DNA of 64,000 bases from an uncultured Pseudomonadota bacterium (GTDB taxonomy: Bacteria > Pseudomonadota > Alphaproteobacteria > RF32 > CAG-239), in the NCBI GenBank assembly GCA_949289935.1, contig CASEQD010000003.1:8816-72815 (forward strand). The letters are read 5' to 3'. Shown here one piece after another: positions 1,391 through 57,256 of the stretch. The translations under genes and the position numbers were made by a program. Below the pieces are notes generated by a model that had not been told where the DNA came from, ran no database searches, and worked only from the letters and a program-made list of their open reading frames with translations. Every line of letters starts with the position of its first letter. The first letter of the stretch is position 1.

Positions 1391-1428
1391 AAAGCCTTCT
1401 TTTTGAAGGCTTTTTACTTGTTTTTTAT
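1391..1428. terminator. Bidirectional rho-independent terminator between convergent genes
   Basis: Hairpin AAAGCCTTC-TTTTTG-GAAGGCTTT followed by a T-run, with an A-run on the opposite side. Confidence 0.6.
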
Positions 1429-2537
1429 TTTACGTAAATGCGAATTTCCGGCGATGTTACATCTCCGCCTGTTTTTGAAGAAAGGGAAATTTTATTGGCA
1501 GAAACACCCATTTCGATCATTTCTTCAAAGATTGCCGCCGCATTTTTCTGCAAATTTGTCTTAGACAATTGAGCCGCTCCGGATGGTGATACTGCTACTA
1601 TTTCAAATTTCACTCCCGGTTTGGCAGAAACCGCATTGCCGACAGCCTGTTTTAATGCCTCCTGGTAATTTACATCTGCCTTGTTAAACTTTGCAACAAA
1701 TAACGGTTTTGACATTGAAACAGACGAATTTCCTATTAAAATCGGCATGTTGTTTGATGTTCCTCTTTCTGATTTGCCGATCATAGGAAGATTATTTACC
1801 CCGTAACTGCCGACTTTGATGGAAGCGTTTAAATCCACAATATAATTCCTTGCACTTTCAATATATTGCTGTTGGCGGGAAATATCGGCGTTTACTTCAG
1901 ACAATAAGCTATTGATGAGGATTGACGTCTGGTTGGTTTCGTTTTCCAAAATACGCAGTTGGCGGTGGTCTTCATCTATGGCTCCTGATACACCGTATGC
2001 CGCGCGGATGGAATCCAGAAGATATGTCGTCATGGCGGCATCTGAAGCAACACGCGCAGAAAGCTGATTTAAAGCATCCGTATTGATATTCATAACCTGA
2101 ACATTGTTCTGCGCTTTTTGCAGCAATGTGTACATATTCGGATTGCCCGGCGTCGTTCCTACCTGCAGTTTGGCTTCTATTGTACCGATGGTTTTGTGGT
2201 ACTGCATGGCATTGCTTATGACTGAAGCCCTGACTTTTTGCAATTCTTCATTATGTTTTTTGATTGAATTCTGCAACTGGGTCAGCTCATTGCGAAAAGA
2301 TATAACCTTTTGTCCGACAAAAGTTCCCGTCCGGGTTCCTTCTTCAATTTCAATCGGTTCAAAGTTAGTCGTCCCCAGCGCCGGAAGGACTCCGGTATTT
2401 TGATAGCTTTCGGCAGCCTCTTCCTGCCCGTCATCACCTATCAGCGACGGAAAGAGCGCATCCCGGCTGAAAGTGCAGCCGCTTATTATCAGCATTGAGA
2501 CAGAGACTAAAGACAATTTTATGGCTATTTTCTTCAT
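1425..2537 (-). CDS. Lipoprotein, coiled-coil rich, function unknown
   Basis: 370 aa with signal peptide and lipobox LIISG-C. Long Q/N-rich helical middle region; C-terminal region weakly resembles a periplasmic anchoring domain. Confidence 0.5.
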   Translation of the reverse strand: MKKIAIKLSLVSVSMLIISGCTFSRDALFPSLIGDDGQEEAAESYQNTGVLPALGTTNFEPIEIEEGTRTGTFVGQKVISFRNELTQLQNSIKKHNEELQKVRASVISNAMQYHKTIGTIEAKLQVGTTPGNPNMYTLLQKAQNNVQVMNINTDALNQLSARVASDAAMTTYLLDSIRAAYGVSGAIDEDHRQLRILENETNQTSILINSLLSEVNADISRQQQYIESARNYIVDLNASIKVGSYGVNNLPMIGKSERGTSNNMPILIGNSSVSMSKPLFVAKFNKADVNYQEALKQAVGNAVSAKPGVKFEIVAVSPSGAAQLSKTNLQKNAAAIFEEMIEMGVSANKISLSSKTGGDVTSPEIRIYVK

Positions 2538-5577: not shown

Positions 5578-6249
5578 CTATCTCATTTTATTAAAATCAA
5601 GCGGATTTTTTTGTTTTTTAAATTTAAATAAAGAGGCCGGCAATTCCGCATCTTTTTCGGAATTATACAAAGACACGACAACTTCAATTCCCTGAGAATC
5701 GACTATTTTCCATTGTTTCAGCTCGAACGGCCGGTTGCCGAAAACCAGTGTTATCGGTCCGATATCCTGATTTTTTTGATACTCTATAACAGCTTCTGTC
5801 GTGCCGGCATCTTTATAAAAATCAACAATTTTGAAATTTTTGCCATCAATTTTTACATCGTTTGACAGAATGAGACTGGCAGGAATATCGTCATAATCAA
5901 AATGAGTTACCTGATCAAGATCTTTGTCATTATAAACAATATCCCTGCCATCGCCGACTATCAGCACGTTTACCGGCGAATCATATTCCATACGGATTTT
6001 GTTCGGCTTTTCTATATAGAGTTTTCCTTCGGCGGTATTTCCGTTGCCGGCTGTCTGGACAAACGATGCTTTCAGGGTTTTTATTCCGTTCAGATATGTT
6101 TCTATTTTCCGGCTGTCTTCGGTTGTTTGAGCCAAGGATGGAAAAGAAGCGCAAAAGCAGAATATCCCTAAAAAGAAAACGGTTATTTTTTTCATGACAA
6201 ATCCCTTATTTTGTTTGTTGTCCGATCTTAGTATAGATATTTTCTCCAC
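5578..6249 (-). CDS. lolA: Outer-membrane lipoprotein carrier protein LolA-like; probable start 6195 (MKKITVFF...)
   Basis: About 205 aa periplasmic protein with signal peptide FPSLAQT and LolA-family size and beta-rich composition. Confidence 0.6.
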   Translation of the reverse strand: MEKISILRSDNKQNKGFVMKKITVFFLGIFCFCASFPSLAQTTEDSRKIETYLNGIKTLKASFVQTAGNGNTAEGKLYIEKPNKIRMEYDSPVNVLIVGDGRDIVYNDKDLDQVTHFDYDDIPASLILSNDVKIDGKNFKIVDFYKDAGTTEAVIEYQKNQDIGPITLVFGNRPFELKQWKIVDSQGIEVVVSLYNSEKDAELPASLFKFKKQKNPLDFNKMR

Positions 6250-6274
6250 AAAAGCAAAATAAAAAACCGATGTT

Positions 6275-6289
6275 TTTAAATACAGTGTT
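6275..6289 (+). repeat. Motif copy TTTAAATACAGTGTT (1 nt after the methyltransferase stop, upstream of lolA)
   Basis: Exact 15-mer; a variant copy TTTAAATACACCGTT follows at 6309-6323. Confidence 0.9.
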
Positions 6290-6290
6290 T

Positions 6291-7241
6291 TTAATCATAA
6301 TTTCTGGTTTTAAATACACCGTTTTCATACCCTTGTATCTCACGTTTTTTTTCAGCCAACTCCAAGCGTTTTTCAGCCAAAGCCACATATTCTTTTTCAC
6401 GTTCGATGCCGATGTAGCAACGTCCGAGTTTTTTGGCGACAACCGAAGTTGTACCTGATCCCAAGAAAGGATCAAGAACAACATCGCCGGGATTGCTGGA
6501 AGCCAAAATAAGCTTGGCCATTAGTTTTTCGGGCTTTTGCGTAGGATGAGGCGTGTTTTCGGGCATGGACCAGAAAGGAATGGATATATCCGTCCAAATA
6601 TTTGACGGATGAGTCAGCCGGCAGCATTTTTCTCCTTCACGACGCCAGTCTTTCGGCGCGCCACTGTCATCACGGTAAGGAGCAACCACCGGGCGAAGCA
6701 TTTTAACGCTGTCCAGATTAAACGTGTATTTTTTTGATTTCGTAAAAAACCATATGTCTTCAAGACAATTTTTCCAATTGTCCCTGGCTCCGCGCCCCTT
6801 TTCCCTTTCCCATGATATCCGGTTGCGTAAGATGAAATATTTTCCGGCAACTTCAGGAATGGAAATGGAGGTTTTCCAATCGGCGCAAATATAAAGACTG
6901 GCATTTTCCTTCATAAGACGGGGGAGTTTTTTGAGCCATCTGTTCAACCATTTTTTATATTCAGAAAAATCCCGCTCTTTAAATACACTGTTTCCAAAGT
7001 TTTTGGTCAGGTTATACGGCGGATCGGCAATAATCAAATCAGCACAGGCATCCGGCAGGCAATCCAAAGCTTTGAACACATCCTGGAGGATGGTTTTATT
7101 CAAAACATAATCCAACGACGCCTTAAAATTTAGCTTAAGCGCGCGGCGGGCATAAGCATTTGTTTCTTTCGGCGTTAATTCCAAGGTTTTATTGCGGGGT
7201 GCTTTTTCCGAAGTCATGAGAAAAAATTCAGTCTTCGCCAA
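6291..7241 (-). CDS. Beta-class N6-adenine (or N4-cytosine) DNA methyltransferase, CcrM/HinfI-like orphan
   Basis: Motif IV DPPYN (LIIADPPYNL) precedes the C-terminal motif I FLGSGTT, which is the beta-class order. No adjacent endonuclease. Shorter than canonical CcrM. Confidence 0.75.
   Translation of the reverse strand: MAKTEFFLMTSEKAPRNKTLELTPKETNAYARRALKLNFKASLDYVLNKTILQDVFKALDCLPDACADLIIADPPYNLTKNFGNSVFKERDFSEYKKWLNRWLKKLPRLMKENASLYICADWKTSISIPEVAGKYFILRNRISWEREKGRGARDNWKNCLEDIWFFTKSKKYTFNLDSVKMLRPVVAPYRDDSGAPKDWRREGEKCCRLTHPSNIWTDISIPFWSMPENTPHPTQKPEKLMAKLILASSNPGDVVLDPFLGSGTTSVVAKKLGRCYIGIEREKEYVALAEKRLELAEKKREIQGYENGVFKTRNYD
6978..6992 (+). repeat. Motif copy variant TTTAAATACACTGTT inside the methyltransferase CDS
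   Basis: 14/15 match; encodes NSVFKE in the protein. Confidence 0.8.
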
Positions 7242-7506
7242 ACTTGCTGTTAACCAGATTTGTCAAAGCATCCACAGCTTCCCGGGCTTCTTTTCCCGAG
7301 GCATTGATTTTTATGGTTGTTCCCTGAGACGCCGCCAGCATCATCAGTCCCATAATCGAACAGCCGCTGACAGTTTGTCCCAAACGTTCAACCGTTACTT
7401 CAACATCCAGATTTTCGATTGTTTTTACAAAGGCGGCAGCCGCCCGGGCATGCAACCCTTTTTTATTTTGAATTTTCAGCTCTGCGCTGAGAATCTCTCC
7501 GTTCAT
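7228..7506 (-). CDS. ptsH: HPr-family phosphocarrier protein (NPr/HPr)
   Basis: 92 aa with the GLHARAAA active-site His region and HPr-fold length. Confidence 0.8.
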   Translation of the reverse strand: MNGEILSAELKIQNKKGLHARAAAAFVKTIENLDVEVTVERLGQTVSGCSIMGLMMLAASQGTTIKINASGKEAREAVDALTNLVNSKFGED

Positions 7507-7511
7507 TGCCC

Positions 7512-7910
7512 TTACATTCCCAATAACTTAGAAGCAACATTGATATATTTTTTTCCGGCTTCCTGTGCGCCTTCCACTGCTTCTTTCAGAGATTTGTCTT
7601 TGCGGAGGGACGCTAATTTTATCAACATAGGCAGATTGATGCCGGCAATAATCTCAACCTTGGCTTTATCCATAATTGAAATAGCCAGATTGGACGGCGT
7701 GCCGCCGAACATATCTGTCAGCACAATGGCGCCGCTGCCTTTGTCTACTTCATCTACTTTATTTAAAATTTCACGGCGGCGGATTTCCATATCATCTTCA
7801 GGTCCGATGCATACTGCTTTTATCTGTTCTTGAGGACCGACAACATGCTGCATTGCAGAAATAAATTCTTCAGCCAGACGGCCGTGCGTTACCAAAACCA
7901 AACCTATCAT
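7512..7910 (-). CDS. PTS EIIA component, mannose family (the ORF track extends to 8045; probable start MIGLV)
   Basis: MIGLVLVTHGRLAEE... is an EIIA-Man fold with the catalytic His in the VTHG context. The 45 aa upstream extension has no similarity. Confidence 0.75.
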   Translation of the reverse strand: MIGLVLVTHGRLAEEFISAMQHVVGPQEQIKAVCIGPEDDMEIRRREILNKVDEVDKGSGAIVLTDMFGGTPSNLAISIMDKAKVEIIAGINLPMLIKLASLRKDKSLKEAVEGAQEAGKKYINVASKLLGM

Positions 7911-7938
7911 CTTCTCTGTTCTTCTTTCAAAAAAGTTA

Positions 7939-8358
7939 TTATGCCTTTTTGCCGCAACTCCAACAATGAACGGCGCCGAAACTTTTGATAAGTTCTTCCC
8001 GGCTCTTGGCTTTGACGATTTCATCGGCTCTTGTCCGCCGGCCATTTAAAACAATTTCTTCAACGTTTTCCACGGGGACGCCGTATGTACGGTTTACTAT
8101 TTTTCCCTCCAGCTCGACAATAAGGACAAATTCGGCCTCAGCCAAAGGTTCGCGGGTTTCTTCATGAATATCATCCAGCAAAACGGACAAACGGTCGTCT
8201 CTTTTCAGCAAAGCCCTGCTTTTTCCGTCAAACTCCAATACCGGATTTACGGGAGCATTGTCGCGGGCATCAATAAAAATAGCCAGTTCTCCGTATTTAT
8301 TTTCGATGATTTCGTAAAAATCCTGTTTTTCAATCAGTGTGTAATATTGATTTTCCAT
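7939..8358 (-). CDS. Hypothetical protein with C-terminal CxxC (HCWSCGKK)
   Basis: 139 aa acidic ORF occupying the position where hprK sits in Rhizobiales, but it lacks a P-loop. Confidence 0.4.
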   Translation of the reverse strand: MENQYYTLIEKQDFYEIIENKYGELAIFIDARDNAPVNPVLEFDGKSRALLKRDDRLSVLLDDIHEETREPLAEAEFVLIVELEGKIVNRTYGVPVENVEEIVLNGRRTRADEIVKAKSREELIKSFGAVHCWSCGKKA

Positions 8359-10281: not shown

Positions 10282-11781
10282 ATGCTGACGCTCAAACATC
10301 TGCCCATATTATCTTTTAATGAAAATCTCGCTTACCTTCACCGTGATTGTACAGCATATAAAGTGGATGACATTAATCAGCTGACAAAAATAGAAATTCA
10401 CGGCGGTTTAAAGACTGTTTATGCTTTTTTGCAGATTGTTGATGATGCCCGCCTGGTCAAGCCTAATGAAATTGCTCTGAATACGGAAGCTTTCAAAATG
10501 ACAAATCTGCCGGAAGGCGCAAAGGTTTCCATTACGCTTTCGGCTCCGCCGCCGAGCCTGAATTCCATTAAACGAAAAATAGCCGGTAATGTTCTGAGTT
10601 CGGGAGAATACAGCGCCATTGTCAATGATATTGCTTCCAAACGTTATTCTAATATGGATATTGTTTCTTTTCTGGTGGCTTCCGGTTCTTTTATGTCGGC
10701 GCCGGAAGTCCTTTCCCTGACCGAAGCACTTATCGGAGACAGAGTAATTTCATGGGATAAAGAATCGATTGTTGCAGATCACCACTGTCTGGGAGGCGTT
10801 CCGGGAAACAAAACAGATTTGATTGTTACGCCCATTGTTGCAGCTTACGGGCTTTCCATTCCCAAAACGGCATCTTATTCGCTGACTTCCTGCGCCGGCG
10901 TGGCCGATACGATGAGTGTTCTGGCCAATGTTGATTTTGACGAGGAAAACCTGAAAGAACTCATTGAACAAAACCGGGGCGCCATTGTCAGTTACAATGC
11001 CCTGGACATTGCCCGGGCAAACAAAATCGTCGGCAATGTCGAACGGCAAATAAGCATTACTCAGCCGGAACATATCACGGCATCTATTTTGGCCATAAAA
11101 ATGGCAGCGGGTATTACGCATCTGCTGATTGATATTCCCGTCGGTCCCAAATCCCGCATAAAAAATACAAACGAAGCCATGCGGCTGCGAAAACTTATGG
11201 AATATGTCGGCGATATGCTTTCCATTGAAATCGATGCCGTTATTACCGACGGAAGCGAACCCATCGGTAACGGCGTCGGCGCTGTTTTGGAAGCCCGCGA
11301 TGTGATGAAAGTTTTAAGCAATAAAAAAGATGCGCCTCAGGATTTAAGAGAAAAGTCATTGTTTTTGGCCGGAAGGATGCTTGAATTTGATCCAAAGCTG
11401 CGCGGCGGGCAGGGATATGCCGCTGCTCAGGAAATTCTTGATTCGGGACAGGCTTTGGAAATGATGAACCGCATTATCAAAGCTCAGGGGCAAAAAGATC
11501 CTCAGCAGCCCGGCAAACTGACTCGCGATGTTGTGGCTAATGTTAACGGCGTGGTTGATGCCATTGATAATTCACGCATTAATAAAATCGGCGTTTTAGC
11601 CGGTGCAACACAATATCCCGGCGCCGGAATTGATTTGTTGAAAAAAGTCGGAGATTCCGTTTATCAGGGTGAAACCCTTTTCAGAATTCATTCCTGCAAT
11701 TCTACCGATTTTGCTTTTGCAAACTCTGTTGTCGACGGCTATAACGGTTATGAAATTACGCCGCAGGACGATGAGGATTAA
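10282..11781 (+). CDS. Thymidine/AMP phosphorylase family protein (long form with N-terminal extension)
   Basis: Glycosyl-transferase family 3 / pyrimidine-nucleoside phosphorylase core (…CLGGVPGNKTDL…, …SGRGLGHTGGT-like region); about 500 aa. Confidence 0.65.
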   Translation: MLTLKHLPILSFNENLAYLHRDCTAYKVDDINQLTKIEIHGGLKTVYAFLQIVDDARLVKPNEIALNTEAFKMTNLPEGAKVSITLSAPPPSLNSIKRKIAGNVLSSGEYSAIVNDIASKRYSNMDIVSFLVASGSFMSAPEVLSLTEALIGDRVISWDKESIVADHHCLGGVPGNKTDLIVTPIVAAYGLSIPKTASYSLTSCAGVADTMSVLANVDFDEENLKELIEQNRGAIVSYNALDIARANKIVGNVERQISITQPEHITASILAIKMAAGITHLLIDIPVGPKSRIKNTNEAMRLRKLMEYVGDMLSIEIDAVITDGSEPIGNGVGAVLEARDVMKVLSNKKDAPQDLREKSLFLAGRMLEFDPKLRGGQGYAAAQEILDSGQALEMMNRIIKAQGQKDPQQPGKLTRDVVANVNGVVDAIDNSRINKIGVLAGATQYPGAGIDLLKKVGDSVYQGETLFRIHSCNSTDFAFANSVVDGYNGYEITPQDDED

Positions 11782-31438: not shown

Positions 31439-31861
31439 TTAATCAATAAGACTCTCTAACTTTATAACAAGCTTATCCGGGGCAGAATTTTCAAACGGAT
31501 ATAATTTTAACAACGGGATTTTTATACCGCAGACATCATAAAAACAATCTTTCGGCAGGCGCTCTATGTCTTGAAAACTTTTAGCCAGTTCCACCGCCAT
31601 TTTTACTTCGCAAAAATCTAAAGAATGAACTTTTTGTACGCCGACGCCGCGCACTTCAAGCCGGCCTTTTATCGCTGCGGGACATGAGGCTATTATGCGC
31701 TTTTCCCTAATATCTATATTGGTACGGTCATCCGCAACGAGAACCGCGTTTTTGTGAGCAATGCAACGCAAGGCCAAATCGGACTTTCCGGAACCGGGAG
31801 CTCCGAAAATCAAAACCCCCTGCCCGTTAAAAGCAATACATGTTGTATGGATATTCATCAT
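31439..31861 (-). CDS. hprK: HPr kinase/phosphorylase, short alphaproteobacterial form (C-terminal domain only)
   Basis: P-loop GAPGSGKSDLAL and downstream LVADD. Confidence 0.75.
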   Translation of the reverse strand: MMNIHTTCIAFNGQGVLIFGAPGSGKSDLALRCIAHKNAVLVADDRTNIDIREKRIIASCPAAIKGRLEVRGVGVQKVHSLDFCEVKMAVELAKSFQDIERLPKDCFYDVCGIKIPLLKLYPFENSAPDKLVIKLESLID

Positions 31862-40900: not shown

Positions 40901-42753
40901 TATTTTTTTATATATCCCAGAATTGCCGTAACGGCGGCAGGGGTTACCCCCGGAATGCGGGAAGCTTCTCCAATGGTTGCCGGTTTGACTTTGGTTAACT
41001 TTTGTACCATTTCACGGGATAAACCTCCTATTTTTTTATAATCAATATCTTCTCTTATTTTTAAGTTTTCATCTTTTTTGAAAACTTCAATATCTGCTTT
41101 CTGGCGTTTAATATATCCGGCATAGCGGGCTTCTATTTCTATTTGTTCATAAATTTCATCTGGAACAGAAAATAAATCAGGCCAAAGATCATTGATTGTT
41201 TCACGTGAAACATTATCATAAGACATTATATTATATGCAGTCCGTTTGGTACCGTCCTGCTTGACTTTTATTCCTCTTTTTTCAAGTTCAGACGGTTTGG
41301 TTATCAGTTTTTCACAAAGAGTGCGACATTGGTTTAATTTTTCCTGTTTTGCTTTAAATACAGTGTATCGTTTTTCAGAAACACATCCTGTCTGCCAACC
41401 TTTTTCAGTCAGACGCAAATCAGCATTGTCAGCTCTGAGTAATAAACGATATTCAGAACGAGAAGTAAACATTCTGTATGGTTCATCAACGCCTTTGGTG
41501 ATAAGATCGTCAATCATAACACCTATATATCCTTCGCTACGGTCAACAGTAAATTCCCGCCCTTCTTTTCTTGCCATTAAAGCCGCATTAATTCCGGTAA
41601 CAATTCCCTGAGCGGCAGCTTCTTCATAGCCGGTTGTTCCGTTAATTTGTCCTGCTAAAAAAAGTCCCGGGACTTTTTTACATTCCAACCTGTGATTTAA
41701 TTCCTGCGGATCAACATAATCATATTCTATGGCATAGGCATAGCGCAGAATTTTGACATTTTTCAAACCATCCATGGTGTGAATAAAATCTTCCTGCACA
41801 TCAGCCGGAAGAGATGTTGATATTCCGTTTGGATAAACAACTTTGGAATTATAGCCTTCAGGTTCAAGAAAAATCTGATGACTGTTACGATCCGGAAATT
41901 TTACCAGTTTATCTTCAATACTTGGGCAATAACGCGGGCCAACCCCTTTTATCAATCCGGAAAACAACGCACATTTTTCAAAATTATCCCGAATAATCTG
42001 ATGTGTCTTTTCATTAGTATGAGTAATTGCGCATTGTATTTGTGGTTGAAGAATATCTTTTGTTAAAAAAGAAAAAGGAACAGGTTTTTCGTCTCCGTTT
42101 TGTTTGGGTAGTGATTCCCAATCTATGGAATCAAAATCCAACCGGGCAGGGGTTCCTGTTTTTAATCTTCCTGTTTTTAGTCCAAAAGCGTTTAAATACG
42201 GTGTTATTCCCATACAAGAAACATCATTTACCCGTCCTCCAACCGTTGTCTGATGACCGGTGAACATTATTCCGTTTAAAAAAGTTCCTGATGTGAGAAT
42301 GACCGTTTCTGATTTTATTTCGGTTCCGTCTGCCAGAATAACACCACATATTTTTTCTTTATCAGACAATAAACCTTCGACAGATGCTTCAATAAGTGTT
42401 AAATTTTTTTGTTTTTGCAAAGCTTCAAGCATATATTTTTTATACAAATCTCTGTCTGCCTGCGCACGCGGTCCACGAACCGCCGGCCCTTTTGATGCAT
42501 TCAGCATGCGAAACTGTATGCCTGCTTTATCAATAACCTGAGCCATTAATCCGTCAAGAGCATCTATTTCCCTGACAAGATGTCCTTTTCCCAAACCACC
42601 GACGGCCGGATTGCAGGACATTTCTCCTATTGAGGAAATTTTATGCGTAATCAAAGCCGTTTTTGCACCTATACGAGCTGACGCGGCACAAGCTTCACAT
42701 CCGGCATGTCCTCCGCCAACAACTATTACATCAAATTTCTGATTATTGTTCAT
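40900..42753 (-). CDS. mnmG: tRNA uridine 5-carboxymethylaminomethyl modification enzyme MnmG (GidA)
   Basis: FAD-binding [13 protein letters not shown]; 617 aa. Confidence 0.97.
41197..41212. promoter_or_regulatory. parS site (TGTTTCACGTGAAACA) inside mnmG
   Basis: Exact palindromic consensus. Confidence 0.85.
41353..41367 (+). repeat. Motif copy TTTAAATACAGTGTA inside mnmG
   Basis: 14/15 match. Confidence 0.8.
42191..42205 (+). repeat. Motif copy variant TTTAAATACGGTGTT inside mnmG
   Basis: 14/15 match. Confidence 0.8.
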
Positions 42754-42868
42754 TTATTCAAATGTCCAAAAATAAATATTGTTTTAAGGGTTTACAACAG
42801 GTTATATAATTTAGCAAGAGATTAATTTGTTAAAAAAAGCTTTTTTTAAACAAATTACGGACATAAAG

Positions 42869-42883
42869 TTTAAATACAGTGTT
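42869..42883 (+). repeat. Motif copy GTTTAAATACAGTGTTATTTT at the mnmE 3' end (supplies the mnmE stop codon)
   Basis: Exact match with extended flanks. Confidence 0.9.
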
Positions 42884-44225
42884 ATTTTCCAATACAAAAA
42901 CTACCGAATATCTTATCAAGAATTTCATCTATCTCTATTTGTCCGGTAATTTTTCCTATTTCCCGCGCAGCTAAACGAATATCTTCAGCCGACAACTCTA
43001 TTTCTTTATTCAGATTAAACAAACTAAGCGATTGTAAAGCTTCTCTTAAAGCTTCACGGTAGCGTGTGCGGGTTATGAGAAGACTTGAGTTTGAGGTAAA
43101 TTTATCATTGATAACCGAACTTATTTTATTAAGAATAATATCAATTCCTTTCTGTTGTTTAACAGAGATCAGAGGAATTCCCTGCTTTTGAATTTCGGAA
43201 CACTGTTCTTTTGTTAAAGCATCACATTTGTTGGCAAAAAAGAACATTTTGTTTTTAAATGATTTTTCAATATTTTCAAAGACCTGAACAGTGTCTTGAG
43301 ATGCATCAAACAAACAAAGAAGAAAATCAGCATCTTTTATTTTTTGATAAGCAATTTCAACGCCCTGGCGTTCAATAGCTTCTTCAGTTTCTCTGATGCC
43401 TGCCGTATCCGTGATAATTACGGGATAACCGTTTAAGTCTAAATGAATATCAACAGCATCGCGGGTTGTACCGGCAACATCGGAAACAATGACGACGTCT
43501 CTTTTAGCTATGGTATTCAGCAAACTCGATTTTCCAGCATTCGGACGTCCAACGATGACAACACGAAAACCTTCCCGCAAGCGTTCACCTATATTATCTT
43601 CTTCCAAATGCCCTTTTATTTCTTCCCGCAGTTTAAATACAGTGTTATTTATATTAGAAACAATATCTTCGGGAATTTCTTCATCGGGAAAATCAATATA
43701 GGCCTCAAGGTATGCCATAATATTAAGTAGCCGGGCTCGCCAGTCTTCATATAAATTTTTCAGGCTGCCTTCCATTTGCCGCAAAGCATATTGCTGCTGC
43801 GCTTTTGTTTCGGCATCTATTAAATCAGCGAGGCCTTCAGCCTCGGTTAAATCCATTTTTTGATTATAAAAAGCCCGTTTTGAATATTCACCGGGTTCAG
43901 CCAGACGAAATCCGGGGATGAGGCTGAGATTTTCAAGAACTGTTGCAATAACAGCCCGGGAACCGTGTGTCTGTAATTCAACAATATCTTCTCCGGTAAA
44001 AGAATTTGGCGCTCTAAAGTAAAGCAACAAACATTTATCAAGAGTTTGTCCGGTTTTTATATCTTTCAGATTAGTAAAATAGGCATAACGCGGTTTAATA
44101 TCAGCAAGGCTTATGTTTGTCATTAATCTGACTACCTGCAAAGCTTCGCTGCCTGAAATGCGAATAACGGCAACACCCGATTTTCCCAATACGGTAGATA
44201 AAGCATAAATTGTTTTATTGTCCAT
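42882..44225 (-). CDS. mnmE: tRNA modification GTPase MnmE (TrmE)
   Basis: G1 GRPNAGKSSL, G3 DTAG, C-terminal CIGK. Confidence 0.97.
   Translation of the reverse strand: MDNKTIYALSTVLGKSGVAVIRISGSEALQVVRLMTNISLADIKPRYAYFTNLKDIKTGQTLDKCLLLYFRAPNSFTGEDIVELQTHGSRAVIATVLENLSLIPGFRLAEPGEYSKRAFYNQKMDLTEAEGLADLIDAETKAQQQYALRQMEGSLKNLYEDWRARLLNIMAYLEAYIDFPDEEIPEDIVSNINNTVFKLREEIKGHLEEDNIGERLREGFRVVIVGRPNAGKSSLLNTIAKRDVVIVSDVAGTTRDAVDIHLDLNGYPVIITDTAGIRETEEAIERQGVEIAYQKIKDADFLLCLFDASQDTVQVFENIEKSFKNKMFFFANKCDALTKEQCSEIQKQGIPLISVKQQKGIDIILNKISSVINDKFTSNSSLLITRTRYREALREALQSLSLFNLNKEIELSAEDIRLAAREIGKITGQIEIDEILDKIFGSFCIGK
43631..43645 (+). repeat. Motif copy GTTTAAATACAGTGTTATTTA inside mnmE
   Basis: Exact match with extended flanks; encodes NNTVFKL. 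Confidence 0.9.
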
Positions 44226-44420
44226 AACAAATTCCTGATAAAAATTTTGTTTATTATCGGTATATTAAAATTCAAAAATTTATGCAAGTTTTTAAAAATC
44301 CGTTTTTAAGGACTCCTCAGCGTTTTTTTAAGTTTATTTAACCAAAGTATCATAGAGTATTTAAAATTCTTTTGTACGGGCTTTATACGGACTCGTTTTT
44401 TTCACTTAAAGGTTTTTGAT

Positions 44421-45098
44421 ATGAAAAACAAACTACAATTAATTATTTGGGATTTTGACGGCGTTATTGCCGATTCCGAAAAAATATGGCTGGAAAACCG
44501 TAGAGTTTTTTTTAAAGAGCGTTTAGGCGTTGATTGGAATTTTGAAACAATCAACAAATATTTCGGCGGAACAAGCGATAAAACAAAAAAACAAATTTTA
44601 AGCCGTCTGGGATATGAAACCGATGAACAATTCTGGAAAGATGTTTTGGACAGAGATGTTGCTTTTATGAAAAAACACGGAATTGAAAAAATGCCCGGCG
44701 TTGAAAAGATATTGGTAGACAAAAGATTTAAGCATTGTGTGGCAACCGGTGGAACAAAAGCAAAAACAAAGTTGAAAACAGACATTATCGGTTTGGAAAA
44801 GTTCATTCCCGAACATCATGTTTTTACGGTCGACAATGTTGAAAAAGGAAAACCAGAGCCTGATTTGTTTTTATTTGCAGCGGAAAAAATGGGAGAAAAA
44901 CCGGAAAACTGTCTGGTTATCGAAGATTCAATAGCCGGAATGACCGCGGCGCAAAGGGCGGGAATGAAAGTTGTTGCCTTTTTGGGAAGCAGTATTTATC
45001 AAAATGAAGACTATTTACAAAAAGTCAAAAAATTAGGAATTAAAGATATCTTTTATAATATGAAAGATTTATATGAGTTTATAAAAATTAATGTTTGA
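44421..45098 (+). CDS. HAD-superfamily hydrolase (beta-phosphoglucomutase/phosphatase-like)
   Basis: Motif I DFDGVIADSE, with a later K and a DD-containing motif. Confidence 0.75.
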   Translation: MKNKLQLIIWDFDGVIADSEKIWLENRRVFFKERLGVDWNFETINKYFGGTSDKTKKQILSRLGYETDEQFWKDVLDRDVAFMKKHGIEKMPGVEKILVDKRFKHCVATGGTKAKTKLKTDIIGLEKFIPEHHVFTVDNVEKGKPEPDLFLFAAEKMGEKPENCLVIEDSIAGMTAAQRAGMKVVAFLGSSIYQNEDYLQKVKKLGIKDIFYNMKDLYEFIKINV

Positions 45099-53019: not shown

Positions 53020-54108
53020 TCAGGCTTTTACTCCTCCTGCTCCGGCGGCTTTTGGGGCGTTTTCATCCAAAGGCCAGCGCGGCCGTGGTTTGAAATCCAG
53101 TTCATTGGTATATCCGTTTTGAAATCGTTCCAGTCCGGCCCAGGCTATCATAACGCCGTTGTCCGTGCAAAAACGCACCGGCGGAGCGGAAAATTCCAGA
53201 TGGTGCCGGGCGGCCAGGTTTTTGAGGGCGTTTCTTAAATATGTGTTGGCGGCAACACCTCCGGCAACAACCAGATCTTTGCCGTCAGGATAATGAGATT
53301 TAAAATAACGAACGGCTTTTTCCAATTTTCCCGTCAGGCATTCCGTTACTGTTTTTTGAAAACAGGCGCAAATGTCAGCAGTGTCTTTTTCTCCAATGAT
53401 GGCATGTTCTATTTTTCCGTCGGGAGAATATGCCTCGATGATTTTTCTTACGGCCGTTTTCAGTCCGGAAAAAGACAGATTCATATCGTTTGAGCCGGAG
53501 AGGGGATGCGGCAGGGTAAAACGATTTTCGTCGCCTGATGCGGCTTTTTTTTCTATCATCGGTCCTCCGGGGTAGCTGAGATTTAACATTTTTGCTACTT
53601 TATCAAAGGCTTCGCCGGCGGCATCGTCTATTGTGGTGCCGAGGCGTTCGTAATTTCCGACATTACGGACAACCAAAATCTGGCAGTGGCCTCCTGAGAC
53701 AAGCAAGAGCAGATACGGATAGCAGACGTCTGAGGTCAGGCGTGCCGTGAGAGCGTGTCCTTCAAGGTGGTTGACGGCGATAAAAGGTTTGTTCAAAGCC
53801 AGAGAAATGGCTTTCCCTGCCATGACGCCGATAACAACACCGCCAATCAGTCCCGGTCCGGAAGAGGCTGCGACAGCGTCTATATCAGATAGTTTTACGC
53901 CGGCGTTTTTTAGTGTTTTTTCAATTATTTCGTCAATATGTTCCAAATGGGCGCGCGCGGCTATTTCGGGAACAACGCCGCCGAAGGTTTTGTGTTCTTC
54001 CTGTGAGAGGACGCATTCACCCAGAATTTCTTTTTTGTCATTTACGATTGCTGCGGCGGTTTCATCGCAGCTGCTTTCTATTCCCAAGACAATCATTATT
54101 ATTTCCAA
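53020..54108 (-). CDS. tsaD: tRNA N6-adenosine threonylcarbamoyltransferase TsaD (Gcp)
   Basis: LGIESSCDET N-terminus and the HxxGH metal site (NHLEGH). Confidence 0.95.
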   Translation of the reverse strand: MEIIMIVLGIESSCDETAAAIVNDKKEILGECVLSQEEHKTFGGVVPEIAARAHLEHIDEIIEKTLKNAGVKLSDIDAVAASSGPGLIGGVVIGVMAGKAISLALNKPFIAVNHLEGHALTARLTSDVCYPYLLLLVSGGHCQILVVRNVGNYERLGTTIDDAAGEAFDKVAKMLNLSYPGGPMIEKKAASGDENRFTLPHPLSGSNDMNLSFSGLKTAVRKIIEAYSPDGKIEHAIIGEKDTADICACFQKTVTECLTGKLEKAVRYFKSHYPDGKDLVVAGGVAANTYLRNALKNLAARHHLEFSAPPVRFCTDNGVMIAWAGLERFQNGYTNELDFKPRPRWPLDENAPKAAGAGGVKA

Positions 54109-54192
54109 AGATGTTGTTTTTTTTATAATTATTTAAGATTATATACACTATAAAAATATTTATGCCAAGCAAATAACATAAAGGATTTTAAA

Positions 54193-55239
54193 ATGGTTAA
54201 ACGTAGCGCCGATGAAGTTTCCGAAGAGAAAAAAACAGTTGTTAAAGACCATCATCGGCATGTATCGCGCGGTTTTGTTTTTAAGGTTTTTGTTTTGTCG
54301 GCTGTTTTTCTGTTATTTGCCGGGGTATGGTTCAGGCCGGATTCTTTTTATAATCTGGCGGAAAAAGTTAAAAATATGTTTGTTTCAGAAGAACAGAAAA
54401 AGCCCGAGGTTGATTTTTTTCAGGTTCAAAAAGAACTTAATGATGTTAAAATCAGTCTTTTGAATTTGAATGCTTCTTTGCAGCGTTTGCGGGAAAAAGC
54501 CGTCAACAGAGAAGATTTGAAGCTGTTGGAGGACAGAATTGTCGCGGCAGAAACAAAAAATGATGAAATTTTAAATGCCAAAGCCGATTCATCGGTCGTT
54601 ATGGGATTGATTTCCCGTTTGGATAAACAGGAACACAGGCTGGATGAACAAGTTAAGCTTTCAGACAGAGGGGCTTTGATTTTGACAGCGGTAATGTTTG
54701 TGAAAGACAGCGCTGAAAGGGGAAATTCTTTTGTATATGAAGCTGAAATTTTGAAACAGATGGCTGAGGGAGAAGATGCTCTTAATGCTCCGGTAACGGT
54801 TATAGAAAACTGCGCCGGTCAGATTATTCCGTCGTCTTCCTCTTTAAAAGAGGCTTTTGAGCAAATTTATGTTAAAATATCAAAAGCCGAGAAAAACAGG
54901 AAACTTCAGGAAAAAAACTGGAAAGAAGTTTTGCGTCAGAAATTTGACGAGTATGTCCGGTTTAGTTATGCAAATGAGCCTGCTTCTTTGGAAATTAAAG
55001 AAAAAGATGTTTTGCAGGCCGTTTATGAAGCCGTAAGAGAAAATAGAATTGAGCAGGCTTTAAATATTTTGAAAAAGCCGGAAGGAGCGCTTTTGTTTAA
55101 TTTATATCCGGCTTTGAAAGAATGGAGCAGCAGGGCAGAACTCCATGTCAGGTTTTATGCCGCTGTTTCTGATATATCTTCCCAGGCGCTGGTTTTGATG
55201 AAAGTTAATTATCTTAAACAAACGGCGGCCGGAGAGTAA
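54193..55239 (+). CDS. Hypothetical membrane-anchored coiled-coil protein
   Basis: One N-terminal TM helix followed by about 300 aa of helical/coiled-coil sequence; no motif. Confidence 0.4.
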   Translation: MVKRSADEVSEEKKTVVKDHHRHVSRGFVFKVFVLSAVFLLFAGVWFRPDSFYNLAEKVKNMFVSEEQKKPEVDFFQVQKELNDVKISLLNLNASLQRLREKAVNREDLKLLEDRIVAAETKNDEILNAKADSSVVMGLISRLDKQEHRLDEQVKLSDRGALILTAVMFVKDSAERGNSFVYEAEILKQMAEGEDALNAPVTVIENCAGQIIPSSSSLKEAFEQIYVKISKAEKNRKLQEKNWKEVLRQKFDEYVRFSYANEPASLEIKEKDVLQAVYEAVRENRIEQALNILKKPEGALLFNLYPALKEWSSRAELHVRFYAAVSDISSQALVLMKVNYLKQTAAGE

Positions 55240-55284
55240 GAGATTTTTGTTTATGGTGAAATAAAAAACAGCAAAGAGGTCATA

Positions 55285-56682
55285 ATGATAAATGAAGAAT
55301 TAAAGAAAATCTGGTTGGAAAAATTTGAAACGGTTCCGCAGACATTGCAGAAAATGCAAAATGTAGAATCGGCGGCAACGGCTTTTAATGCAAATATTGA
55401 TGCCGTTTTGAAAATTAAAGGGAATCGGATTGCCGAACTGGCGGAGCAATTCGGGCTGACATTGTCCGAACTGGAGAATATTCATACTGCCAAGCTTAAT
55501 GAACCGGTGGATGTTTTGAAGGGGTTGTTTCGTTGTTTTAAACGAGGTATTGCCGAAGAATGGTTGACGGAAGATAAATTTGTTTATGACTGGATGGTGA
55601 AAAATCTCGGTTATGACCGTTTGCAAATGGGCGGGCAGGGCGGTATTGTTGCCAATGCTCTGGCCGTTGCCGGCGTCAGGAAAGTTTTTGTTCATACAAA
55701 TTCACTGCCGGAGCTGCAGGCAAAACAATTTTTGGCGCTGGATAATCTTTTGTCTTTTGATGCTGACGGAACGGAAAAACCGGCTTATCAGATAAACAGA
55801 GAGACGGATATTCCTCTTATTCACTGGATTTTGGAATTTGACAAAGGAGATGTTGTTGAAATCGGCGGCAAGAGTTTTGTCTGTCCAAAATCGAATCGTT
55901 TTATTGCGACGTATGATCCGTTGAATTTATATTTGGTTATGGATGAGCATTTTGTTGAAAAAATGTCAAAGGAAAAAGCGGATTATGTGATTTTGTCCGG
56001 TTTCCATGCTTTGACGGAGCATAACGGCGGTGTGAAGCGTCAAGATGATGTTTTGCCGATTATATTGTCCTGGAAAAAACAGGGAGATTTGATTCATTTG
56101 GAAATTGCTTCCACGCAGGATATTGCCGTGCGTAAAAGAATTATTGAAAAAATTGCGCCGGTTGTTGATTCTGTCGGCGTGAATGAACGTGAAACCATAG
56201 ACATTCTGGAAGTTACCGGATTTGAAAAACTGGCCGAACAATGCAATGAAGATACACACAGCGTTAATATGTTTAAGGCTCTGTTGAACATAAAAAAATA
56301 TATGAAAACACCGCGTATTCAGTTGCATATGTTTGGCTTGTACATGACTTTGCAAGACAAGGGATTTAAAATTACGCCTGAAGAAAATCTGCGGGGAATG
56401 ATGCTGGCTTCAACCGTTGCCGCCGGTAAAGCCGGTACGGGTACAATAGATATTCGGGAGAATTTGTTGTGGGCTCAGGGGCAGTCTGTTTCCGATGTCG
56501 GATTGAACGAACTTCGTAATCTGGCCGAATATTTGCAAAAAGGAGAACTTTTGGAAAAGGGAATGACCGAAACCGATGGATTTGATTTGATTGCCGTTCC
56601 GACAATTCTGGTGGAAAAACCGGTAACATTGGTTGGTATGGGAGATACTATTTCATCCATTTCTCTGGTGGGGGCGAGGTAA
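55285..56682 (+). CDS. ADP-dependent sugar kinase family protein (ADP-glucokinase/phosphofructokinase-like, ribokinase superfamily)
   Basis: N-terminal NANIDAV; the MGGQGGIVANALA motif (GGNAxxMA-type); C-terminal catalytic GxGD (LVGMGDTISSIS); 465 aa, matching ADP-GK/PFK architecture. Confidence 0.55.
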   Translation: MINEELKKIWLEKFETVPQTLQKMQNVESAATAFNANIDAVLKIKGNRIAELAEQFGLTLSELENIHTAKLNEPVDVLKGLFRCFKRGIAEEWLTEDKFVYDWMVKNLGYDRLQMGGQGGIVANALAVAGVRKVFVHTNSLPELQAKQFLALDNLLSFDADGTEKPAYQINRETDIPLIHWILEFDKGDVVEIGGKSFVCPKSNRFIATYDPLNLYLVMDEHFVEKMSKEKADYVILSGFHALTEHNGGVKRQDDVLPIILSWKKQGDLIHLEIASTQDIAVRKRIIEKIAPVVDSVGVNERETIDILEVTGFEKLAEQCNEDTHSVNMFKALLNIKKYMKTPRIQLHMFGLYMTLQDKGFKITPEENLRGMMLASTVAAGKAGTGTIDIRENLLWAQGQSVSDVGLNELRNLAEYLQKGELLEKGMTETDGFDLIAVPTILVEKPVTLVGMGDTISSISLVGAR

Positions 56683-56701: not shown

Positions 56702-57256
56702 TTATACTCCGGTTTTTTGTTGCCTGTCGATGAATTTGCCAATGGCCTCTATTACCCGGTTGACGGTGTTGTCGACGATTTCTTCTTTGGTTTCGACAAC
56801 AATGTCGGCTTCGGAATAGTAAGGATATTCTTCTTTGATATAGGTTTCGAGCTTGTTTTTCAGGTGAGAATCGTTTCCTTCCAGAAATGGACGGTGTTTT
56901 CTTCCGGCCGTGCGGTTGTAAAGCGTATCAATGTCTGCTTTTAGCCAGACGGTGATGGCATGTTCTTTTGCCAGCCGCCGGGTTTGTTCGGCAACAAATG
57001 AGCCTCCGCCTGAAGCCAGAACGCAAGGAGTGCCCTGTAAAAGCCGTTTCATGACACGTTCTTCTCCCGCCCGGTATTCTTCAGCACCAAAGCATTTTAA
57101 AACATCTACCAGTGATAATCCGGCTGCTTTTTCGATTTCCTGGTCTCCGTCGACAAAGGGCAGGTTTAATTTTTTTGCCAAGCGTTTGCCGACGCTGGTT
57201 TTTCCGCTGCCCATCAGGCCGACAAGCAATATAATCTTATTTGTTTTTTTTATCAT
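56702..57256 (-). CDS. aroK: Shikimate kinase
   Basis: P-loop LVGLMGSGKTSVG. Confidence 0.92.
   Translation of the reverse strand: MIKKTNKIILLVGLMGSGKTSVGKRLAKKLNLPFVDGDQEIEKAAGLSLVDVLKCFGAEEYRAGEERVMKRLLQGTPCVLASGGGSFVAEQTRRLAKEHAITVWLKADIDTLYNRTAGRKHRPFLEGNDSHLKNKLETYIKEEYPYYSEADIVVETKEEIVDNTVNRVIEAIGKFIDRQQKTGV

Follow-up and report, generated by a model that had tools for sequence, protein, structure and literature searches.

A predicted ADP-dependent glucokinase encoded beside tsaD in an alphaproteobacterium

The locus

The window discussed here is the whole 64-kb stretch of alphaproteobacterial DNA that was analysed, and all positions are counted from its first letter. At 55285..56682 on the forward strand, the ORF listing gives exactly one open reading frame (ORF), which starts with ATG and encodes 465 amino acids (aa). 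An earlier note on this DNA drew attention to the ORF, and both its length and the three motifs quoted for it, NANIDAV (residues 35-41), GGQGGIVANALA (116-127) and VGMGDTIS (450-457), are found where they were placed. The neighbours it named (tsaD, a coiled-coil membrane protein and aroK) are also correct, and the setting is one of bacterial housekeeping genes. The main features are these:

53020-54108, minus strand: TsaD (PF00814, by Pfam)
54102..54129, plus strand: best sigma-70-like site upstream of the two-gene unit, 10/12 matches (a consensus match only)
54193..55239, plus strand: membrane-anchored coiled-coil protein, 348 aa; upstream neighbour and conserved partner of the kinase
55273..55279, plus strand: Shine-Dalgarno-like AAAGAGG, 5 nt 5' of the kinase ATG, read off the sequence
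55285..56682, plus strand: coding sequence of an ADP-dependent sugar kinase family protein, predicted ADP-dependent glucokinase (from the ORF, PF04587, PDB matches, and AF2 model with Foldseek)
56702-57256, minus strand: shikimate kinase (PF01202, by Pfam)

The gene for the 348-aa protein is separated from the kinase gene by 45 bp, with no terminator-like site in between, and the two are probably co-transcribed. Homologues of this protein are encoded directly 5' of the kinase in L001 (41% identity) and L007 (20% identity, E = 1e-18). Searches for a family or fold gave no Pfam or NCBIfam match and, from an AF2 model (pLDDT 72), PDB matches of E = 0.2 at best; the homologues form just 20 clusters, unnamed and domain-less. 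The proximity of tsaD prompted us to consider alphaproteobacterial Mic60, an identification that is not supported, there being no Mitofilin match.

No glycolysis partner genes were found within the 64-kb window, whose remaining genes are housekeeping. Among eight sampled contexts of related bacterial kinases, five are uninformative on function, and the neighbourhood described here is likewise silent. In a relative from Myxococcota, the gene for a GH31 alpha-glucosidase ends 4 bp upstream of the kinase gene, on the same strand, and in another (L006) the genes for phosphoglucomutase (PGM) and glucose-6-phosphate isomerase (PGI) lie <3 kb from it.

Far from the kinase, at 10282-11781, the window encodes a 499-aa ‘putative thymidine phosphorylase’ of archaeal type, which is related to AMP phosphorylase and passes TIGR02645. 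We considered a functional link between the two proteins and set it aside as a lead only: the phosphorylase fails the AMP-phosphorylase equivalog (375 versus 535), and the genes are 45 kb apart.

Family and fold

The kinase belongs to the ADP-dependent glucokinase (GK)/phosphofructokinase (PFK) family. It matches Pfam PF04587 at E = 9.9e-72 (242.4 bits, where the gathering cutoff is 27), with residues 30-462 aligned to profile positions 3-429 of 430, and no PfkB/ribokinase Pfam family (PF00294 included) matches the 465-aa sequence even at E <= 1. All 14 significant matches in a sequence search of the PDB are ADP-dependent kinases, the top-scoring of which is AncMsPFK (6C8Z; E = 2.9e-58), a PFK-type ancestor. 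An AF2 model (pLDDT 90.8, pTM 0.91) has the expected two-domain architecture, a large Rossmann-like domain and a small alpha/beta lid. In Foldseek comparisons, this model matches ADP-dependent kinases at E = 1e-38 to 1e-21, with TM-scores of 0.83-0.89 for the closed forms; the best are to PhGK (5O0J; 0.87/0.89), followed by PfuGK (1UA4; 0.86/0.88). ATP-dependent ribokinases and adenosine kinases rank next, a clear gap below, at E ~1e-6 and TM-scores of 0.31-0.42 when normalised to the query and <= 0.54 when normalised to the target. The earlier note had assigned the protein to the ADP-dependent GK/PFK family and not to PfkB/ribokinase, and had suggested a PF04587 search and a structure search as the check. 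Both return the ADP-dependent family, and the full-length PF04587 match, the PDB matches and the fold agree. The developments it had named as contrary to its assignment did not occur: the top profile match is to no PfkB/ribokinase family, and the sugar-loop and GXGD motifs are kept on alignment.

The kinase falls below the NCBIfam equivalog cutoffs for ADP-GK (196.8 versus 387 for NF010642, and 192 versus 554 for NF010641), and also below that of its best NCBIfam model, TIGR02045 for ADP-PFK (219.8 versus 408.1). We infer that the ADP-GK models are tuned to their archaeal source enzymes, and that the bacterial proteins, being divergent, score low because of this. By its sequence, the kinase is a GK-type relative that stands outside the NF010642 and NF010641 equivalog groups.

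The active site

Residue conservation was judged in two sets, 121 alphaproteobacterial relatives (61-100% identity) and 120 other bacterial relatives (38-56% identity). The positions of interest, all on the plus strand, are these:

55387..55407, plus strand: NANIDAV, the NxNxD sugar-binding motif (N35, N37, D39); aligns to AncMsPFK N32/N34/D36 (PMC7948494); invariant in the 121 + 120 relatives
55558..55560, plus strand: E92, glucose-binding Glu; aligns to AncMsPFK E90, the ancMT E72A site and the PfuGK Glu; invariant
55630..55665, plus strand: GGQGGIVANALA, the GG(Q) sugar-binding loop, residues 116-127; aligns to AncMsPFK G114/G115/Q116; invariant
55816..55824, plus strand: L178-I179-H180, specificity positions; K-x-N in PFK and bifunctional enzymes, x-x-H in glucokinases; H180 invariant
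55894..55899, plus strand: N204-R205, the Arg contacting the ADP beta-phosphate; aligns to AncMsPFK R206 (PMC7948494); invariant
55915..55917, plus strand: D211, at the R212 position of PFK-type enzymes; Asp as in PfuGK; invariant
56005..56007, plus strand: H241 (SGFHAL), sugar-site position; aligns to AncMsPFK Q244; Gln in all crystallised enzymes
56095..56103, plus strand: H271-L-E273, the HXE Mg-ADP motif; aligns to AncMsPFK E282; invariant
56182..56193, plus strand: N300-E-R-E303, the NXXE Mg/phosphate motif; aligns to AncMsPFK D310/E313 and PfuGK NEVE; invariant
56632..56655, plus strand: VGMGDTIS (450-457), the GXGD motif with the catalytic base D454; aligns to AncMsPFK D471; invariant

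Across both sets, the residues for catalysis, Mg-ADP, adenine and ribose contacts and sugar binding either do not vary or change only conservatively. The ADP contacts of AncMsPFK align to conserved H348, F350, L442/V443, R205, E273 and N300/E303. Throughout the bacterial clade, position 178 is Leu or Met, and H180 and D211 do not vary.

Sugar substrate and phosphoryl donor

Glucokinases and phosphofructokinases of this family differ at a handful of positions. K179, N181 and R212 of AncMsPFK, which contact the 6-phosphate of fructose-6-phosphate (F6P), are kept only in PFK and bifunctional enzymes, and conservation of E90 is confined to GK and bifunctional enzymes; the K179A substitution raises the Km for F6P ~1000-fold, and N181A and R212A ~200-fold; position 181 is His in TlGK (PMC7948494). 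In the kinase, the three phosphate contacts are replaced by L178, H180 and D211, and E92 is retained, the same pattern as in PfuGK (C/H/D plus E). Alignments place K.N at the 178/180 positions in 6C8Z, 5K27 and 1U2X, C.H in 1UA4, and Ala at the E92 position in PhPFK. The K-N-R and x-H-D signatures almost exclude one another in a set of 127 family representatives, and the kinase's entire clade is x-H-D. These residues mark the protein, by sequence, as a glucokinase and not a phosphofructokinase or a bifunctional enzyme. The choice between GK and PFK that the earlier note had left ambiguous can thus be settled in favour of the glucokinase signature, its family call standing; its suggestion of a nucleoside substrate finds no support, because the glucose-contacting residues are conserved. 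Representatives with the pattern ‘HVDQ...H’ were considered as possible eukaryotic ADPGK and rejected, one of them (P0163) having no mouse ADPGK match at the 1e-20 cutoff and matching archaeal sequences best.

At position 241 of the sugar site, the kinase has His where all crystallised enzymes have Gln. We considered H241 as a sign of changed sugar specificity and rejected it: most GK-type representatives have His, and the bacterial clade contains both residues (97 Gln, 22 His), an interchange inside one tight orthologous group that argues against a specificity switch. The same variation might suit an enzyme of this family and chemistry that in the cell acts on some other unphosphorylated hexose or on an analogue (mannose, glucosamine, 2-deoxyglucose and 1,5-anhydroglucitol are examples), and the clade is just 26-32% identical to characterised enzymes and under the equivalog cutoffs. 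No biochemical study of a bacterial PF04587 member, and hence no assay, was found in the literature, our coverage of which is thin for subscription journals, so that this is not proof of absence. Such a substrate is nonetheless unlikely in our judgement: the remaining glucose contacts known from PfuGK and MjPFK/GK (N35, D39, E92, G116-Q118, H180 and D454) are invariant, and the context links that are known are to enzymes that release glucose or use glucose-6-phosphate (GH31, PGM and PGI).

Sequence is no reliable guide to donor preference, and some archaeal family members make limited use of CDP, UDP, GDP, ATP and GTP (PMC12965863). A kinase that had kept the fold and sugar site and preferred ATP, GDP, CDP, UDP or PPi to ADP would nevertheless have to be squared with the conservation of every class of AncMsPFK contact to ADP (ribose, adenine, beta-phosphate and Mg2+), and with the structural remoteness of the ATP-dependent superfamily members (TM ~0.35-0.4). 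To our knowledge, all characterised PF04587 members prefer ADP. With that preference (see also PMC7948494) likewise against it, a different donor seems to us quite improbable.

An ADP-dependent phosphofructokinase, or a bifunctional PFK/GK, would account for the rank of TIGR02045 as top NCBIfam model (220 bits) and of the Methanosarcinales PFK ancestor 6C8Z as top PDB sequence match. The TIGR02045 score is, however, far under its 408-bit cutoff, the best structural TM-scores go to glucokinases, and in the family tree the kinase clusters with H180/D211-type sequences and with none of the K/N/R type. Given also the cost of single Ala substitutions at the three positions replaced here (200- to 1000-fold in Km), we consider phosphofructokinase activity of this kind very improbable.

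Phylogeny and inheritance

In a neighbour-joining (NJ) tree, the kinase falls in a monophyletic bacterial clade with 100% bootstrap support. Counted as 90%-identity clusters, this clade holds >1000 alphaproteobacterial members and about 900 from other phyla, at least six phyla being represented (Alphaproteobacteria, Myxococcota, Bacteroidota, Planctomycetota, Verrucomicrobiota and Fibrobacterota). Cultured members include Ancylomarina and Labilibaculum, and NCBI already names relatives "ADP-dependent glucokinase/phosphofructokinase". To call the family rare in bacteria, as the earlier note had, is thus an overstatement for this lineage. Of the two groups to which it ascribed the family, archaea and metazoa, the archaeal enzymes (1e-38 to 1e-58) are much closer to the kinase than metazoan ADPGK. 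The clade is placed among Asgard and other archaeal glucokinase-type lineages, and the nearest labelled non-bacterial groups are Asgard homologues at ~29-32% identity; its two commonest bootstrap sisters receive 22% and 20%, and the deep GK-type backbone 44-58%.

The kinase gene is inherited vertically beside tsaD. Its composition is host-typical (GC z = 0.01, GC3 z = 0.19, codon usage rank 19/35), and the ratio of kinase to TsaD divergence is constant at ~2.1 across two related lineages; on both grounds, recent horizontal transfer was rejected. That an archaeal-type gene in a bacterium, with pathway genes not adjacent, should be a decaying or non-catalytic relic of horizontal transfer deserves almost no credence and is effectively refuted by the conservation pattern. 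The catalytic residues are invariant across 240 relatives; the ORF, undisrupted and of full length, follows a good ribosome-binding site and has a typical composition; and the place beside tsaD is kept across lineages in which TsaD is just 73% identical.

Proposed reaction and significance

We think it likely that the product of this gene is an ADP-dependent glucokinase (EC 2.7.1.147 type) that belongs to the ribokinase superfamily, is cytosolic and catalytically intact, and would convert glucose and MgADP to glucose-6-phosphate and AMP. The mechanism is derived by homology with crystallised relatives. Glucose would occupy the cleft that separates the large Rossmann-like domain from the small lid, in contact with N35, N37, D39, E92, G116-Q118, H180 and H241. 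MgADP would bind on the large domain through H348, F350, L442 and V443; R205 would contact the beta-phosphate, and E273 (HXE) and N300/E303 (NXXE) would hold the hydrated Mg2+. Once the lid has closed, D454 (GXGD) would take the proton from the 6-OH, which would then attack the beta-phosphate in line. Efficient phosphorylation of fructose-6-phosphate is not expected, because all three contacts to its phosphate are replaced. In the cell, such an enzyme would feed free glucose into glucose-6-phosphate metabolism and could be used at a low ATP/ADP ratio, its AMP product being recycled by adenylate kinase.

Textbooks and reviews place ribokinase-type ADP-dependent glucokinases in archaea and animals only (PMC12965863, PMC12696579). 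The locus shows a conserved glucokinase-type branch, clearly functional-looking by its sequence, to be a core gene throughout an alphaproteobacterial lineage, with members in five or more further bacterial phyla. The earlier note was correct in picking out the kinase; the gene is no oddity. Current understanding is not overturned, and annotation pipelines already give the family name. What the bacterial branch offers is a test, outside archaea, of the sequence rules that separate glucose from fructose-6-phosphate use and that were derived from archaeal enzymes; and as its nearest labelled relatives are Asgard, the clade is useful for reconstructing the enzyme's moves between domains. A bolder and rather doubtful proposal is that the clade consists of mesophilic ADP-glucokinases specific for glucose, that they go back to a single acquisition from an Asgard-like archaeon followed by spread across phyla, and that in this lineage the gene became a core, vertically inherited one and the main or only hexokinase, perhaps acting together with the conserved membrane protein encoded upstream. 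If true, Bacteria would for the first time have a documented ADP-driven route into glycolysis.

Comparison with known systems

Close counterparts of the kinase are the ADP-glucokinases of Thermococcales (Pyrococcus furiosus, 1UA4; P. horikoshii, 1L2L/5O0J; Thermococcus litoralis, 4B8S/1GC5; EC 2.7.1.147). They have in common with the kinase the two-domain fold (TM 0.86-0.89, rmsd 2.5-2.9 Å), the NxNxD, GGQ, NR, HXE, NXXE and GXGD motifs, and the same signature of Glu 92, His 180 and Asp 211 with neither Lys nor Arg to bind a sugar phosphate. The kinase differs in being only ~28-29% identical to them, in having His and not Gln at 241, in its mesophilic bacterial host, and in its position in a separate, 100%-supported bacterial clade under the NCBIfam equivalog cutoffs. 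AncMsPFK (6C8Z/6XIO), the reconstructed ancestor of Methanosarcinales ADP-PFK/GK, is ~30% identical, and its nucleotide, Mg2+ and catalytic residues are conserved in the kinase one for one; it differs in having K179/N181/R212 and a strong preference for F6P, where the kinase has L/H/D. The Asgard homologues (from Heimdall-, Prometheo-, Frey- and Odinarchaeota MAGs) carry the full N-N-D-E-GGQ-x-H-R-D-H signature of the kinase but are archaeal and uncharacterised.

Metazoan ADPGK (mouse, 5CCF/5CK7) has the family and fold in common with the kinase (Foldseek E = 1e-21) but is distant from it (19% identity, TM 0.61, and phmmer E = 8e-11 over residues 179-307 only). Eukaryotic ADPGK has an extra N-terminal helical insertion (PMC6028617); the kinase is without an N-terminal extension. 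The ATP-dependent PfkB, ribokinase and adenosine kinase enzymes, finally, have the ribokinase-superfamily core and the GXGD/NXXE logic in common with the kinase, but at ~10% identity, and have no enlarged lid domain like that of the ADP-dependent family.

Family and fold

The open reading frame proposed earlier for the kinase is present in the ORF listing with an ATG start, preceded by a Shine-Dalgarno-like AAAGAGG that is separated from the start codon by 5 nt. Its neighbours are also those that had been named:

53020-54108, minus: TsaD
54193-55239, plus: X, 348 aa, with an N-terminal hydrophobic helix and a coiled coil
55285-56682, plus: the kinase, 465 aa
56702-57256, minus: shikimate kinase, convergent to the kinase gene

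Three motifs had been read in the protein, and all are there: NANIDAV (residues 35-41), GGQGGIVANALA (residues 116-127) and VGMGDTIS (residues 450-457). PF04587 (ADP_PFK_GK) is the sole significant Pfam match (242 bits, E = 9.9e-72, approximately the whole profile), and no PfkB or ribokinase Pfam model matches even at E <= 1. All 14 significant matches in a PDB sequence search are ADP-dependent kinases. AncMsPFK, the reconstructed Methanosarcinales ancestor (6C8Z, E = 2.9e-58), comes first, followed by ancMT, PfuGK, PhPFK, PhGK, TlGK and MjPFK/GK; mouse ADPGK is a far weaker match (8e-11, partial alignment). AlphaFold2, given 42 clade sequences, predicts the structure with confidence (pLDDT 90.8, pTM 0.91), and when the model is compared with the PDB by Foldseek, the range from E = 1e-38 to 1e-21 holds ADP-dependent kinases only. 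The best superpositions are with ligand-bound glucokinases (GKs): PhGK (5O0J; TM 0.87/0.89, rmsd 2.5 Å) and PfuGK (1UA4; TM 0.86/0.88). The next structural class, ATP-dependent guanosine/adenosine kinases and ribokinases, follows at E ~1e-6 and TM ~0.35-0.4. Since Pfam, PDB sequence and Foldseek results all point to ADP-dependent kinases, the earlier note was correct in its choice of family and in setting the protein apart from PfkB and ribokinases; the top HMM is of neither kind, and the motifs persist on alignment. Among NCBIfam models, ADP-dependent phosphofructokinase (ADP-PFK) ranks first and every model falls below its cutoff. The kinase is a PF04587 member outside all curated equivalog groups.

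Sugar and nucleotide sites

Munoz et al. combined a structure of AncMsPFK with F6P and alanine scans (PMC7948494). K179, N181 and R212 are conserved in PFKs and bifunctional enzymes only; the Km for F6P rises about 1000-fold in K179A and about 200-fold in N181A and R212A. E90, in turn, is conserved in glucokinases and bifunctional enzymes only, and position 181 is His in the glucose-specific TlGK (PMC7948494). We mapped these residues by HMMER alignments and a MAFFT alignment of 127 sequences.

Sugar-site residues, by AncMsPFK position
E90: kinase E92; PfuGK E; PhPFK A; ancMT and AncMsPFK E
K179: kinase L178; PfuGK C; PhPFK, ancMT and AncMsPFK K
N181: kinase H180; PfuGK H; PhPFK, ancMT and AncMsPFK N
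R212: kinase D211; PfuGK D; PhPFK, ancMT and AncMsPFK R

In the 127-sequence alignment the K-N-R and x-H-D signatures are nearly mutually exclusive family-wide, and x-H-D occurs throughout the kinase's whole clade. Because of this, and of the residues at the four mapped positions, the kinase has the glucokinase signature; the NCBIfam ranking and the PFK-type top PDB match follow from similarity over the whole protein rather than from the active site. H241 deviates, being Gln in the crystallised enzymes (Q244 of AncMsPFK). We read it as neutral, since His is commoner than Gln here among GK-type representatives of the same alignment, and both occur within the bacterial clade (Gln in 97 of 120, His in 22), where all else is fixed.

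Every AncMsPFK residue that contacts ADP or Mg2+ aligns to a conserved residue of the kinase.

Nucleotide, metal and catalytic residues (AncMsPFK; kinase)
Ribose contact: H360; H348
Adenine pocket: L362, V459/V460; F350, L442/V443
Beta-phosphate contact: R206; R205
Hydrated Mg2+: E282 (HXE), D310/E313 (DXXE); E273, N300/E303
Catalytic base: D471; D454

Across 121 alphaproteobacterial relatives (61-100% identity) and 120 other bacterial relatives (38-56%), each of these residues is either unchanged or replaced conservatively; from this we infer the standard mechanism of the PF04587 family. Glucose, the predicted acceptor, and MgADP, the predicted donor, would occupy the cleft between the domains; after lid closure, D454 would activate the 6-OH of glucose, and transfer of the beta-phosphate would yield G6P and AMP.

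Gene context and inheritance

The rest of the window is housekeeping (rho, mnmE, mnmG, rsmG, parAB, dnaK/J, dnaX, recR, rlmN, lolA, lptD/F/G and others). No other glycolytic gene occurs within the 64 kb, so the local context is uninformative on function. Two contexts elsewhere in the clade are suggestive. In Myxococcota, the kinase is preceded on its own strand, at a distance of 4 bp, by a GH31 alpha-glucosidase gene, which places a glucose producer beside a glucose kinase; and in one relative's locus (L006), phosphoglucomutase and glucose-6-phosphate isomerase lie <=3 kb away. Five further contexts held nothing informative. Physiologically, the kinase may serve ADP-driven phosphorylation of free glucose, workable at low energy charge, with adenylate kinase returning the AMP; the proposal follows the reasoning offered for the enzymes of archaea and animals (PMC12696579).

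The kinase gene has no compositional sign of recent arrival in GC (0.419, equal to the mean over genes; z = 0.01), GC3 (z = 0.19) or codon usage (distance rank 19 of 35). One relative's locus, L001, is syntenic over MltA-Tim44-SecB-Nth-TsaD-X-kinase-AroK-XerD-...-RsmA-SurA-LptD, and another, from the GC-poor L007, keeps the core Nth-TsaD-X-kinase.

Identities to the window
L001: TsaD 89%; kinase 76%; X (6855-7973) 41%
L007: TsaD 73%; kinase 44%; X (6003-6998) 20%

These identities put the kinase:TsaD divergence ratio at about 2.1-2.2 for L001 and L007 alike, which is consistent with vertical descent of the block as a whole.

In three lineages X immediately precedes the kinase, and it evolves far faster than the kinase. 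Its C-terminal domain is helical and confidently predicted, and its homologue clusters number only 20. Neither Pfam nor NCBIfam assigns it to a family, no PDB fold matches it, and a Mic60-like identity, which we tested, is unsupported.

Other features of the window

1425-2537, minus: 370-aa protein, no Pfam family; weak NCBIfam match to MakB alpha-pore-forming cytotoxin subunit (E = 3.8e-4, far below cutoff)
10282-11781, plus: archaeal-type 'putative thymidine phosphorylase', 499 aa (TIGR02645, 471 against a cutoff of 434.6)
~31439-31861, minus: 140-aa protein, immediately following tsaE and made up of the HPr kinase C-terminal domain (PF07475) alone; placed from L003 15356-15778
58434-59120, minus: 228-aa protein between xerD and rsmA; borderline CoiA_C (21.2 bits against a cutoff of 21, E = 2.8e-4)

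The thymidine phosphorylase-type gene lies 45 kb from the kinase. Its product is closely related to archaeal AMP phosphorylase but scores under the cutoff for that equivalog (375 against 535); the archaeal enzyme recycles AMP produced by ADP-dependent kinases. Truncated HprK genes encoding the C-terminal domain only are typical of Alphaproteobacteria. The 228-aa protein has no confident family, and L001 has a similarly sized ORF at the corresponding position. A probable replication-origin region of the chromosome lies at ~42000-44500, where cumulative GC skew is lowest and the strand preference of the genes switches; mnmE-mnmG-rsmG-parA-parB and rho are adjacent.

Distribution and relation to known enzymes

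At E <= 1e-5 the kinase has >1000 homologue clusters. Each of the 120 best is about 465 aa long, with 61-80% identity, and their named sources are uncultured Alphaproteobacteria. One relative (P0004, 594 aa, 79% identical, from an ENA contig of 5.7 kb outside the window) joins a response-regulator receiver domain (PF00072) to PF04587; this may be a genuine fusion or an error of gene calling. Across 1.84 billion 50%-identity representatives, scanned exhaustively with HMMER, only 667 clusters match at E <= 1e-3, and the PF04587-type family is therefore small as a whole. The kinase's own group has one representative there (62% identity); about ten follow at 44-50%, then others at ~30-35%. The 44-50% tier is bacterial, with named members from Myxococcota, Opitutales, Fibrobacteraceae, Planctomycetota and Bacteroidota (including cultured Ancylomarina longa, Labilibaculum sp. 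and Flavobacteriaceae). A Myxococcota-seeded search gave 894 clusters at E <= 1e-20. Many bacterial relatives carry the NCBI/JGI label 'ADP-dependent glucokinase/phosphofructokinase'.

Distance-based neighbour-joining trees (200 bootstraps) support the alphaproteobacterial group at 96-100% and the entire bacterial clade at 100%. The labelled GK-type groups adjoining it are archaeal: mostly Asgard (Heimdall-, Prometheo-, Frey- and Odinarchaeota), with Methanolobus ADP-GK and Thermococcales GKs. The deep GK-type backbone reaches 44-58% only, and the two commonest alternatives for the sister group (22% and 20%) both include Heimdall sequences. Most simply, this would reflect a single old transfer from archaea to bacteria, with later spread among bacterial phyla.

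Reviews place ribokinase-type ADP-GK under archaea and animals only (PMC12965863; PMC12696579), and the searchable literature, whose coverage is incomplete, yielded no biochemical study of any bacterial member. The bacterial clade is annotated but, within that coverage, unstudied. The kinase is here refined to a predicted glucokinase type and placed in this broad clade. The kinase is not of the metazoan ADPGK type; functionally, it looks like an archaeal ADP-GK.
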